Shown here: positions 50,359-54,612 of the stretch, in pieces
Position numbering within the stretch: the stretch's first letter is position 1
Layout of the letters: every line of letters starts with the position of its first letter
Source of the DNA: Escherichia coli
GTDB taxonomy: Bacteria > Pseudomonadota > Gammaproteobacteria > Enterobacterales > Enterobacteriaceae
Strand: one strand, 5' to 3'
Length of the DNA stretch: 64,000 nt
Assembly: GCF_044324785.1 (NCBI RefSeq)
Contig: NZ_CP172127.1
Translations under genes and position numbers: made by a program
Notes under the pieces: model-generated
What the model was told of the DNA's origin: nothing
Database searches by the model: none
The model's input: the letters and a program-made list of their open reading frames with translations, nothing else

Positions 50359-53300
50359 TTATTTCATCGCCTCCTCGTCCTTTGCCGTATCGGCATCCAC
50401 CGCGGTAATGGTCACCGTCACTGGCTTCATTTCGTACCCGCCATACGTCAGGGCGTTAAATGTGAACGTATAGACACCAGGCTTGCTGGTACTAAATTTA
50501 CGCGTGATTTTTCCGCTCACGAAATGGTCATTTTTCGACGGCAGGAATTGATAATCCTTCTCCGTCACTCCTTCCGGAGCCTCAATGTCGACCCACACAT
50601 TCCCGCCAACAGGGTTATTTGCCGAGAACAGGGTCACCTCCAGCTTCGCAGTCGATTTCCCATCCGCCACCAGCGATTGCACATCAGATGATGCGGTGAG
50701 CTCCGCGTTTTTATCATCCGCGACGAATTTAGATTCGGCAGTTTTCGTTGATACCTGACCGTTGGTCTGACTCACTTGCGCCTTGAGTGTGTATGTCGCC
50801 GCAACAGTAGTGGTAGCGGTGAAAATAGCCTGCCCTTGCTCATTCGTTGTCGCAGTGCCATTCGGTTCCAGGTTTAACGAAGCCGGGCTGGCAGTCAGCG
50901 TCACGTCGCTATCTTTCAACAGGTTGTTATTGGCATCAGTCACCGTAACTTTATACGTCTGTTTGGCTTTGCCGTCCGCCAGCGCATAGTTGCCAATCAC
51001 CTCAATACCGGAGACGGTTGCGGTAGTCTTATCGGCTACAAACGTTATAGTCTGCGTATTCGAAGGCTGGCTATTCCCTGCCGATGCCGTGATCTCATAC
51101 GTTCCGGCAGTCACTGAAACCACCTGCAACTCTGCTTTCCCCTCATCGTTGGCTTTCACCCAGACATTATCGCCAGTAAGCGGCTTGACACCCCGGGGCA
51201 GATTAAAGGTCACCAGAGTTCCTGGAACAGGGTTACCGTTTTTATCCTCAACGGTCGCCGTCAGCGTAAAGGCATCTTTGCCGTTTGCCACTTTTTGAAC
51301 GGCGGTGTCTACCTGCAGGTTTGCCTGACCGGTGCTGGCATCCGCGTTGAATTTCACCGTGACCGTCTTCTGAGAGTTTTTCACCACGGCCGCGATTTCA
51401 AGTTCCCCTGCAACGGTTGATATCAACTCAATATCCGCTTTCCCTGCCGCATTGGTTGTTACTGTATTCCCCGTCTTGCTGGTCACACCCTGCGGTAAAG
51501 TCAGCGTAACTTCTTGCCCCTGCAACGGGTTACCATAGCTGTCCACGACGGTCAGGGTTACCTGGTTAGCAGACTGTCCATTTGCCAGTTGGTTATTCAC
51601 CTTCACCGCCATATCACTGATCACTGCCCGGGAAGCGTCGCCTGCAACATTCAGCACCAGTGGCTGAGCAACGGCATTTTGGCCGTTCACGCGCGGCATG
51701 ACTGATAGCTGACCTGCAGCCGATCCCAGCGTTAAGGTCGCCACGTAGACCCCATTACTTTGCTCTGTCCAGCTTCCTGCTGAAGGTCGCGCTGATCCCG
51801 TGCTGGCGGCACCGCTAAACACTGGTGCATCTGGCTTCAGCCCGGTGACCGGGTTCCCGTACGCATCCTTCACGGTGAAGGTGAGTTCCGTCGTCGTTTT
51901 AACCGTTGGAGTCTTATTGTCCGCAACAAGCGTAGAGTTCGCTGATGACATCTCCCCGGCGATGACCGTCAACTGCGCGGCTTCGGTGGCTGCTGGCTGG
52001 CCGTTGAAGAGAGGCATGACACGAAGCTCGCCCGTCTTTCCGCCTGTGGTCAACGTAGCAACATAGTAACCGTCACCTTTTTCGGTCCAACTGGAAATAG
52101 TCGCCCCTTCAGAGGCGGTCCCCGTCAAACTTGCCGACAACGAAAGACCACTGATAGCGTTGCCATGCGCATCTTTCGCCACCAGCGTCACGGTTGTGCT
52201 TTCGCCTGCTTTTACGCGATCTGCGGCTACAGACACTGTCGACTGGCCTGAAGATAACGCATCAGCCACCACGGTTACTTTTGCCGCGTTTGCTGCCGCA
52301 TCCTGTCCATTTAGCTTCGGCATAACTTCTAATTCACCCGCCGTAGAGCCGAGAGTAATCTGCGCAGTCCACGTCCCATCACCATTATTTGTCCAGCCAG
52401 ATGCCGTAGAACCTACAGCAGCGGCACCCGCTAATGACGGCGCTTCCGGCGTGAGGCTGGTCACAGGGTTGTCATTGGCATCTTTTGTCGACCAGATTGC
52501 CGTAAGCGTACCGCCGACCACCGGTTTATCAGGATTCAGGGTGATGGACGAATGTGCTGCATCAAGCGGCCCGGCAACAAACTTCAGCGTTTGTTGTAAT
52601 GTGCCCAGCTGATACTGCTCGCTGAAGGCACGCACAACAACGTTTCCGGCACGGGTCGAAGAAACCGTGGCGCTGTAAACCCCAGGTTTTATTTCCGAAA
52701 TGGCACCAACGGTAACACCATTAGTGTCTTGCGGAACAAGTCGCAGGCGGCTGGCTTCTCCCGTCACCGGATTACCCTCGGAGTCCACCGCAGTCAGCGT
52801 CAGCGTGTAGGCTTGCTGACCATCAGCAACCACGTCACCTGACGGCTCGTTAGCGCTCAGGGTGGAGTTTGCCACATCCATCATCGTGGCCCGCAGTTCT
52901 GCAGTGACGGTTTTGCTCATGCCATCAACGCTAACAGTAATCGTTGCCTCACCTGACTGCGTTCCGGTCGTAAAGACAGACTGGTACACCCCTGCTTCAG
53001 TTTCGGTGAACTCACCCAGTGTGGGCTGTGCCTGTGATTTAGTGGCCTTCAGGGTACGAGTCACAATATTTCCAGCCGGTTTGAAGGTTAGTTCAGTCTT
53101 GATCTGCTCCTTCATGCCCGTGACTGGCTGGCCCTCGGCGTCGCGCAGAGACAGCACCAGCGGCTTTTGCTCATTACCGTTAGCAAGCATTTGAATACGG
53201 CTCTGACCGTCAAGCGTTAACGCCGTGCGATCGGCGCTCATACCAGCTCCGGTAATAACCACTTCTGTCTGCACACGTTTCGAGGCATTACCTTTCTTAT

Positions 53301-54612
53301 CGTAGGCAACTGCTGAAATCGCATAATAATTGTCTTTGCCTGGACGGTAAGCCGGGAGCGTTACTTGCCACTGACTACCCTGACCGGTAATTTTGCCACC
53401 TTCAGCCAGTAATGACGGCGCTTCCCACTGCACATTTTTCAGTCCGTGAGTTGCTTTGCTCACCACAAGTCCCAGGGAAAGTGTCTGACCGCCCTTGCCT
53501 TCAATACGCTCAGGCAGAGCAATACGAATCACTTCAGATTTGCGGTACTCAAGAACGATGTTGTTATTACGCTCAACCAGGTCATAGCGGCTGCCTGCCA
53601 GCATTCGACGCTCGCGAATGCTGTCTGTATCGAGTTGTTTTTCCAGAGGTTCGCCAATTCGGTAGTTAACTTCCAGGCCAAAGCGAGTGTCATTCTCACC
53701 ACTCTTGCCCTGCTTATGCCCGGCGCTCAGTGTCAGAAGAGGCACTGGTGTATAGGTTACCTCGGCAGAAATAGCATGCGGGTCTTTCTGGCGTTTATCT
53801 TTACCAAACAGCCCGACTTCATCGCCATAATACTGCTCATACATCAGGCTTGCGCCAAGCTGCGGCCAGGCAGGTAAATAGCCCTCAGCACGAATATCCC
53901 AGCCATTCGCCGGGCGTTCCTGATAATCCTCAACATCCGGCGATTTTTTCCAGCCAGAAGCCCGGATATAACCATTGGCGCTCAGTTTCAAATAATCACG
54001 CCAGTATTCCGCACCAACACCAATGCGGGTATGACTACGGGATAAATCATGATCGATAAAAGTGTTCACCCCCGCCATCCAGTCATTTCCTGAAAAATGA
54101 CGCCAGCCAAAACCAATATTTGACTGAGTACGATCGTCGGTACGATGTATTGCCCCCTGAGTGAACAACATATTTGTCGGCGTGTCATAAATCGGATAAA
54201 GCATTTCCAGCGAAGAGTCCTTCAGCGAGAAATCTTTATCGACATTCAGTTTGACGCGCGCAGTACCATATTTCCCGAGCCACTCCTGTATTTCCTGGTT
54301 AGCTTTAGCTGTGGCCATTCCGGTAATAAAGTTACGTGTCGCATCGCTATCTGGCTGACTGCTTAAAAATGTCCCGGCATTTGCGGCAAACGACGCGACA
54401 TTTTTCTCCACGTTATTATCAGCAGTTACCGTAGTATTTCCCATGCTCAACCGTGGCTGAACCGCATGCTGCGCACGTGCCGCCATTACTGGGGTAAAGG
54501 TGACAGCGAGTGGAAAAAGAACCTGAACAGAGATATTTGCCCACGCCACGCAGCGGGCCAGAACTGAATAACGAAATCGTGGTTGTTTATGACCTGTTTT
54601 ATAACGTGACAT
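50359..54612 (-). CDS. eaeH: intimin/invasin-family inverse autotransporter adhesin with tandem bacterial Ig-like domains (FdeC-like), full length
   Basis: 1417-aa ORF: signal sequence, N-terminal beta-barrel region, then many ~100-aa Big-type repeats (recurring ...LTV.A.D..GNP..G... blocks). Confidence 0.9.
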   Translation of the reverse strand: MSRYKTGHKQPRFRYSVLARCVAWANISVQVLFPLAVTFTPVMAARAQHAVQPRLSMGNTTVTADNNVEKNVASFAANAGTFLSSQPDSDATRNFITGMATAKANQEIQEWLGKYGTARVKLNVDKDFSLKDSSLEMLYPIYDTPTNMLFTQGAIHRTDDRTQSNIGFGWRHFSGNDWMAGVNTFIDHDLSRSHTRIGVGAEYWRDYLKLSANGYIRASGWKKSPDVEDYQERPANGWDIRAEGYLPAWPQLGASLMYEQYYGDEVGLFGKDKRQKDPHAISAEVTYTPVPLLTLSAGHKQGKSGENDTRFGLEVNYRIGEPLEKQLDTDSIRERRMLAGSRYDLVERNNNIVLEYRKSEVIRIALPERIEGKGGQTLSLGLVVSKATHGLKNVQWEAPSLLAEGGKITGQGSQWQVTLPAYRPGKDNYYAISAVAYDKKGNASKRVQTEVVITGAGMSADRTALTLDGQSRIQMLANGNEQKPLVLSLRDAEGQPVTGMKEQIKTELTFKPAGNIVTRTLKATKSQAQPTLGEFTETEAGVYQSVFTTGTQSGEATITVSVDGMSKTVTAELRATMMDVANSTLSANEPSGDVVADGQQAYTLTLTAVDSEGNPVTGEASRLRLVPQDTNGVTVGAISEIKPGVYSATVSSTRAGNVVVRAFSEQYQLGTLQQTLKFVAGPLDAAHSSITLNPDKPVVGGTLTAIWSTKDANDNPVTSLTPEAPSLAGAAAVGSTASGWTNNGDGTWTAQITLGSTAGELEVMPKLNGQDAAANAAKVTVVADALSSGQSTVSVAADRVKAGESTTVTLVAKDAHGNAISGLSLSASLTGTASEGATISSWTEKGDGYYVATLTTGGKTGELRVMPLFNGQPAATEAAQLTVIAGEMSSANSTLVADNKTPTVKTTTELTFTVKDAYGNPVTGLKPDAPVFSGAASTGSARPSAGSWTEQSNGVYVATLTLGSAAGQLSVMPRVNGQNAVAQPLVLNVAGDASRAVISDMAVKVNNQLANGQSANQVTLTVVDSYGNPLQGQEVTLTLPQGVTSKTGNTVTTNAAGKADIELISTVAGELEIAAVVKNSQKTVTVKFNADASTGQANLQVDTAVQKVANGKDAFTLTATVEDKNGNPVPGTLVTFNLPRGVKPLTGDNVWVKANDEGKAELQVVSVTAGTYEITASAGNSQPSNTQTITFVADKTTATVSGIEVIGNYALADGKAKQTYKVTVTDANNNLLKDSDVTLTASPASLNLEPNGTATTNEQGQAIFTATTTVAATYTLKAQVSQTNGQVSTKTAESKFVADDKNAELTASSDVQSLVADGKSTAKLEVTLFSANNPVGGNVWVDIEAPEGVTEKDYQFLPSKNDHFVSGKITRKFSTSKPGVYTFTFNALTYGGYEMKPVTVTITAVDADTAKDEEAMK

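Follow-up and report, generated by a model that had tools for sequence, protein, structure and literature searches.

In the 64,000-nucleotide (nt) stretch of an Escherichia coli chromosome analysed here (the window), the minus strand carries, at 50359..54612, an open reading frame of 1417 codons plus a stop codon, with an ATG start, zero internal stops and a C-terminus ending in DEEAMK. The coding sequence is placed on the minus strand because translation of the plus strand gives only stops throughout the interval. An AGGAA motif precedes the ATG with a 9-nt spacer. This reading frame is, with high confidence, the chromosomal core-locus gene fdeC (synonym eaeH), a stable single-copy gene encoding a monomeric inverse autotransporter (type Ve) adhesin. 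The initial annotation, made from the letters alone, had described an uninterrupted frame of 1417 residues and an eaeH/FdeC-type gene without giving its strand, and its coordinates, length and family are all borne out: RefSeq matches carry this name at 92–98.5% identity, every full-length match is annotated as "fdeC: inverse autotransporter adhesin FdeC", and the exact window protein is already deposited in NCBI (e.g. HAN8600677.1, "intimin-like adhesin FdeC"). The corresponding 90%-identity protein cluster has 17,949 members, and those sampled measure 1416–1418 residues. Among complete E. coli genomes, the best DNA match is fdeC of strain N3 (98.5% identical), and most other alleles are 90–97% identical. 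At the protein level, the window copy is 98.7% identical to N3, 94.9% to O157 Xuzhou21, 94.6% to HS and 91.5% to the CFT073 protein. These values, over the full length, lie within the published range of FdeC/EaeH orthologues (>91%), and the gene occupies the chromosomal position expected of them, between ecpR-ykgR and rclCBA, in a cluster of reductases and regulators.

Domain organisation of FdeC

The N-terminal region (residues 1–75; 54388..54612, minus strand, as for all segments of the gene below) would comprise, by its composition, an extended Sec-type signal peptide and a short periplasmic stretch. Residues 1–20 contain six Lys/Arg and no Asp/Glu, and are followed by a hydrophobic core at about residues 21–45 (Kyte–Doolittle maximum 1.9 at residues 31–45) and by the AxA motifs VMA and ARA. 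The basic n-region, the hydrophobic core and the AxA motifs are consistent with a Sec signal peptide. Residues 76–357 (53542..54387) constitute an inverse autotransporter β-barrel of the 12-strand type and its linker. The Pfam family IAT_beta (PF11924) matches residues 76–350 over profile positions 3–279 of 279 (E = 4.4e-109), and residues 113–357 match the crystallised barrels of invasin (PDB 4E1T, E = 1.9e-82) and intimin (PDB 4E1S, E = 8.6e-71). The barrel stands at the N-terminus, and the passenger, an array of immunoglobulin-superfamily (Big) domains with Invasin_D3 and Big_1 matches from residue 456 onwards, lies C-terminal to it, which is the arrangement of type Ve autotransporters. The first, membrane-proximal Ig-like domain (residues 358–455; 53248..53541) resembles D00, and the D00-D0 structure of intimin (PDB 6TQD) matches residues 358–474 with E = 2.5e-13.

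The remainder of the passenger is periodic. A self-comparison of the whole protein by blastp returns only the diagonal, and the periodicity is exposed by sliding windows of 110 residues, which give off-diagonal matches at offsets of about 100, 200, 310, 410, 520 and 630 residues, with E-values down to 7e-24 and identities of 26–46%. A hidden Markov model (HMM) was started from three units and refined by repeated searches of FdeC itself, every unit entering at E < 0.01 in a search with a model built without it; the model converges on nine units of about 102 residues each between residues 456 and 1409. The periodicity is thus real and far above chance, at the protein level only. The many repeats of about 100 residues seen in the passenger by the initial annotation are hence recovered by Pfam and by the HMM alike, and the self-comparison suggested there yields a period of about 102 residues in the protein and none in the DNA.

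Units R1 (residues 456–573) and R2 (residues 574–675) span 52588..53247; they were first detected at E = 3.9e-6 and 1e-7, respectively, and are matched by Invasin_D3 and Big_1. Units R3 (residues 676–778), R4 (residues 779–880) and R5 (residues 881–986), at 51655..52587, form the most similar trio (40–43% amino acid identity) and coincide with the crystallised domains of the FdeC-B fragment, PDB 4E9L, which matches residues 595–1008 with E = 1.9e-240 and 27 mismatches in 414 positions (about 93.5% identity). In that structure, electron density is described for residues 678–991, corresponding to three Ig-like domains (Nesta et al. 2012, PMC3324786). Units R6 (residues 987–1088), R7 (residues 1086–1189 or 1089–1189), R8 (residues 1189–1291 or 1190–1293) and R9 (residues 1294–1409), at 50386..51654, constitute the most allele-variable part of the protein and are defined by the self-HMM, by a Big_1 match at residues 999–1089 and by structural modelling. 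Together with the D00-like domain, R1–R9 give ten Ig-like domains between residues 358 and 1409, the same number as the "10 Big domains" ascribed to FdeC by Heinz et al. 2016 (PMC4943183).

The distal end of the rod is formed by R9, which has an Ig-like fold with an insertion and is not a lectin. An AlphaFold2 model of residues 1086–1417 is all-β, with a mean predicted local distance difference test score (pLDDT) of 80.6, and its best Foldseek matches are invasin (1CWV), FdeC (4E9L), InvD and intimin D0-D1, over more than 318 columns. Searched against PDB sequences, R9 gives nothing beyond noise (E > 0.5). A word-indexed homologue search with the tip domain recovered almost only FdeC fragments, and an exhaustive phmmer search with R9 recovered many multi-repeat proteins with several matching stretches in each, and R9 is therefore an Ig-type repeat. 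The possibility that R9 is a special receptor module was dropped on the same grounds, the repeat being common to many multi-repeat proteins. The sole cysteine of FdeC is residue 21, within the signal peptide, so the mature protein is free of cysteine. The C-type lectin domain of intimin and invasin requires a disulfide, and a disulfide-bonded domain of this type is therefore excluded in FdeC. No LysM family was found in the protein by the Pfam scan. Ten Big domains without LysM and without a C-type lectin cap are the organisation of FdeC/EaeH orthologues.

Divergence of the repeats, allelic variation and prevalence

The units share 15–43% pairwise identity at the amino acid level and 32–50% at the nucleotide level (codon-aligned). 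Tandem Repeats Finder reports no array in fdeC, even at a minimum score of 30, and a self-comparison by blastn with a word size of 7 gives no direct repeat at E < 0.01. A repeat finder returns imperfect matches of 16–29 nt only, and exact direct repeats reach 16 nt at most. Nucleotide identities of 32–50% and exact repeats of at most 16 nt lie below the needs of RecA-dependent recombination, and such repeats are shorter than assembler k-mers. The Ig-like domains would be ancient duplications that have since diverged to this level. Since the units have diverged so far, fdeC behaves as a stable single-copy gene, and protein-level periodicity does not imply genetic instability in this case.

The length of the gene was sampled in 60 matches, taken in even steps down a ranking of 5082 records. 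Query coverage is at least 99% in 53 of the 60, and the 45 that span the whole query measure 4249–4257 nt. The other seven comprise one match of 85%, one of 43%, four K-12-type fragments of 21% and one remnant of 3%. The alleles of N3, CFT073, O157 Xuzhou21 and HS encode 1416–1417 residues and align without unit-sized gaps. Deleted forms are rare. Strain CH4796 lacks 666 nt, from about gene nt 3016 to 3682 (R6 into R8), in a gene annotated as frameshifted, and the flanking alignments overlap by 24 nt; strain 52F4 carries a deletion of 2290 nt in fdeC, with flanking alignments overlapping by 10 nt. Public proteins of 1091, 604, 437 and 271 residues fuse the N-terminus of FdeC to a C-terminal part and are possibly assembly artefacts. 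The deletion junctions are out of register with the Ig-like units (residue 397 to 723, and residue 1006 to 1228). The homologue P0053 (55–59% identical) is about 213 residues longer over the comparable region, apparently with about two extra units; this difference in domain number arose as orthologue groups evolved apart and does not reflect instability within fdeC. Neither the near-identical DNA units nor the copy-number differences that characterise a length-variable tandem-repeat (contingency) locus are found.

Variation between strains takes another form. Identity of the window gene to four alleles, in windows of 150 nt, ranges from 74 to 100%, in patches that differ by strain, which indicates an allelic mosaic. 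N3 differs at 62 positions, which are clustered at gene nt 120–550, 950–1600 and 2325–2565. The barrel is 98.6–99.6% identical in amino acids among the alleles compared and the distal units fall to 73–90%, with per-domain identities of 73–100% for R6–R9. A distally variable mosaic is already depicted in Fig. 5A of Heinz et al., with FdeC subtypes ranging from 60% to 95% identity (PMC4943183). Variation in fdeC thus stems from mosaic allelic exchange and from occasional destructive events (insertion of IS3, sporadic deletions), not from changes in repeat number.

Of 5426 complete E. coli genomes, 5077 contain some fdeC sequence and 4585 (about 85%) contain 80% of the gene or more. For comparison, Goh et al. 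report complete fdeC at a frequency of 67% among 126 genomes and 83% among ECOR strains (PMC6714894), and Nesta et al. give 83–100% for collections of pathotypes and commensals and 29% for laboratory strains (PMC3324786). The K-12 copy is one of the disrupted forms, as the initial annotation had noted and as Nesta et al. also state (PMC3324786). In MG1655, eaeH (b0297) is a pseudogene at 314357–315244 that abuts IS3A (315229–316483), which is followed by the pseudogene ykgA, and K-12 aligns to the window gene over nt 1–876 only, at 98.4% identity. The window is hence not K-12, because the K-12 copy is truncated by IS3. The further suggestion that an intact gene marks a non-K-12 background stands as far as K-12 itself is concerned; intactness as such is only weakly informative, since an intact copy is the norm.

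Flanking genes, upstream region and other features of the window

The window is ordinary E. coli chromosome, with lacA, cyn, cod, prp, yah, bet, ykgEFG, rclRABC, the fdeC cluster and ecpRAB, and is collinear with N3 at 98.9–99.4% identity. The fdeC locus is syntenic, with ecp/ykgR on one side and rcl on the other. By Pfam, the neighbours of fdeC are an AraC/GyrI-like regulator, two aldo/keto reductases and a LysR regulator, in agreement with the cluster of "regulators plus reductases" described around fdeC by Nesta et al. (PMC3324786). The convergent AraC-family gene of the cluster (49348..50238, plus strand), matched by HTH_18, HTH_AraC and GyrI-like families and identified from the annotation of N3 and K-12, corresponds, at full length, to the K-12 pseudogene ykgA; as 858 nt are annotated in N3, the reading frame may begin further downstream than the listed GTG. 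On the other side, a divergent aldo/keto reductase (55178..56029, plus strand; PF00248, E = 2.9e-50) stands in the same gene order as in N3.

Between positions 44000 and 61681, collinearity with N3 is broken by a single deletion. At about 56035–56043, 923 nt are absent relative to N3, with an overlap of 9 nt at the junction, and almost all of the 990-nt second aldo/keto reductase, which lies between the reductase at 55178–56029 and the LysR regulator at 56144–57037, is thereby removed. The same contiguous junction occurs in one of the 5426 complete genomes, that of strain 06-00048 (alfalfa sprout).

A perfect palindromic hairpin with a 12-bp stem and T-runs on both sides (50295..50323, both strands) lies 36 nt past the fdeC stop, between fdeC and the convergent AraC-family gene. 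As a terminator-like site occurs on either strand, the hairpin probably serves as a bidirectional intrinsic terminator common to the two genes. Upstream of fdeC, an intergenic region of 565 nt (54613..55177, minus strand) would contain the promoter and leader. This region is AT-rich, with GC down to 31%, and the 300 nt immediately 5' of the ATG (54613–54912) show 98% identity among six strains, one of which is K-12. Two adjacent hairpins are located about 65–115 nt upstream of the ATG (54689–54725, minus strand). The first has the form UUUCCUUUUC-ugcg-GAAAAGGAAA; in the second, UUUUU comes after a short stem rich in G+C, giving a terminator-like site at 54705..54689. The predicted RNA fold of the 148-nt leader has z = -3.7, and Rfam gives no match to the fdeC upstream region. 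Should transcription begin upstream of these hairpins, there is a slim chance that they form an undescribed attenuator or regulatory leader that helps to make FdeC expression dependent on contact and temperature.

Elsewhere in the window, the sole Rfam match in the 64 kb is naRNA4 (RF02564), a nucleoid-associated non-coding RNA derived from repetitive extragenic palindromic elements, at 26079–26148 (plus strand) in the yahI/yahG region, with a score of 78 bits, above the gathering score of 59.5. A four-gene cluster for a sugar/autoinducer-2-type ATP-binding cassette transporter lies between yahK and yahJ (about 18244–22680, minus strand) by the annotation of N3, and an ASCH-domain gene comes after it at about 22931–23374. 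These genes would be a further sign of non-K-12 gene content.

Biogenesis, expression and relation to known adhesins

By analogy with the family and with orthologues that are 91–95% identical, the following course of export, display and adhesion is proposed. The extended signal peptide would carry FdeC through Sec, and the β-barrel assembly machinery (BAM), helped by the translocation and assembly module (TAM), would insert the barrel (residues 76–357) into the outer membrane. The linker and the C-terminal passenger would then be threaded out via the barrel as a hairpin, a mode of translocation cited by Heinz et al. (PMC4943183), and the ten Ig-like domains would fold outside the cell into a rod probably about 40 nm long, as extrapolated from the three-domain crystal, in which the domains span 126 Å (Nesta et al. 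2012, PMC3324786). The tip would be a further Ig-like domain, unlike the disulfide-bonded C-type lectin tip of intimin and invasin. Such a rod may allow the bacteria to bind epithelial cells and collagen, to aggregate and to form biofilms. For CFT073 FdeC, TAM-assisted assembly and a surface-exposed passenger of about 100 kDa (proteinase K) are reported, together with collagen binding and biofilm formation (Heinz et al. 2016, PMC4943183). Epithelial adhesion, host-contact-induced expression and a role in colonisation of the bladder and kidney are described by Nesta et al. (PMC3324786). Expression would be low in broth, through silencing of the AT-rich upstream region by H-NS, and would be induced on host contact. 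Work by Easton from 2014 is said to concern the control of expression by H-NS and temperature, and the drop in upstream GC to 31% would be compatible with H-NS control of this kind.

Several points weigh against the assignment as a whole. No FdeC-specific model of NCBIfam was passed, the best being the N-terminal models of IatC (the top-scoring), Ilp and intimin, all below their cut-offs; because no NCBIfam model passed, orthology rests on identity and synteny, both strong. The cleavage of the signal peptide is predicted from composition, the expression and adhesiveness attributed to this allele derive from the literature on its orthologues, and the position of the promoter and the control by H-NS are proposals.

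Three other explanations were weighed against that of a stable, functional FdeC adhesin gene. The initial annotation had regarded the Ig-like array as prone to recombination-driven length variation and as a hotspot of assembly errors, i.e. as a contingency-type repeat. The protein period of about 102 residues, the rare deleted forms in public data (CH4796, 52F4 and the short FdeC proteins) and the apparent extra units of P0053 favour this view. However, the DNA holds neither an array nor a significant direct repeat, its units are too divergent and its longest exact repeat too short, at least 99% of the query is covered in most sampled matches with nearly constant length among those spanning it, the alleles of five strains show no unit-sized indels, and the deletions that do occur are not in register with the units. 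An unstable array is thus already largely refuted and is very improbable; neither the length variation nor the assembly-error hotspot is upheld, and special long-read confirmation of fdeC in this assembly is unnecessary.

It is unlikely, though less so, that the gene is intact yet effectively cryptic here, silenced by H-NS, contributing little to adhesion and conserved as a rarely used core gene. The AT-rich upstream region, the reported lack of expression in ordinary culture with host-cell contact as the trigger (Nesta et al., PMC3324786), and the tolerance of gene loss in K-12 and in about 15% of complete genomes would fit such a gene. Against it, the gene is kept at full length in 4585 of 5426 genomes, the conservation of the barrel and of the 5' leader argues for selection, and mutants of orthologues are out-competed in mouse urinary tract infection (PMC3324786). 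The chance that the gene encodes an intimin (Eae)-type adhesin, which would bind the translocated receptor Tir via a C-terminal lectin-like domain, is negligible. Such a reading draws on the old name eaeH ("attaching and effacing protein homologue"), on the barrel match to intimin and on a match of the NCBIfam model intimin_all to the N-terminal 470 residues. However, intimin_all scores 386 against a cut-off of 1400, LysM was not found, the mature protein has no cysteine for a disulfide-bonded lectin domain, and modelling gives an Ig-like fold for the C-terminal domain. fdeC is flanked by genes for reductases and regulators rather than those of the locus of enterocyte effacement (LEE; tir, cesT), and a passage of Nesta et al. 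2012 describes a C-type lectin domain in FdeC as without evidence (PMC3324786). Membership in intimin was rejected accordingly.

With FdeC thus the preferred assignment, the window copy is one more intact allele of a characterised adhesin, a vaccine candidate against E. coli of the extraintestinal pathogenic (ExPEC) and enterotoxigenic (ETEC) types. Everything in the initial finding is already published and annotated, the inferred repeat instability being its only failing part, and the gene itself offers nothing new; it is usable as a stable marker whose distal half is mosaic and antigenically variable.

Compared with other adhesins, FdeC shares the inverse autotransporter topology, a homologous barrel and a Big/Ig-like rod with invasin of Yersinia and intimin of enteropathogenic and enterohaemorrhagic E. 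coli. However, the Ig-like domains number ten in FdeC and four in each of these, and FdeC lacks the C-type lectin tip, cysteines in the mature protein, the LysM domain present in intimin, and any linkage to type III secretion or Tir. The other inverse autotransporters of E. coli, YeeJ and IatA-D, share the barrel family and the Big_1 repeats, but occupy different chromosomal loci; the N-terminal model of IatC scores highest for FdeC, yet stays below its cut-off. In the case of K-12 eaeH, the first 876 nt and the upstream region are 98.4% and 98% identical to the window copy, respectively, but the gene is cut by IS3A after about nt 876–888, the rest of it and part of ykgA are lost, and only remnants (ykgP, ykgQ) are left of the flanking reductase genes, whereas fdeC of the window is complete. 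The N3 allele is the nearest among complete genomes, and its differences cluster in R4 and in the first 1600 nt or so. Locus, length (1416–1417 residues) and architecture are shared with FdeC of ExPEC IHE3034 and CFT073 (ECOK1_0290; PDB 4E9L) and with EaeH of ETEC H10407. The CFT073 barrel is 98.6% identical, against 91.5% overall and 73–90% in R6–R9, and the last 8 residues differ; the window copy is thus set apart from the ExPEC and ETEC proteins by allelic differences only.

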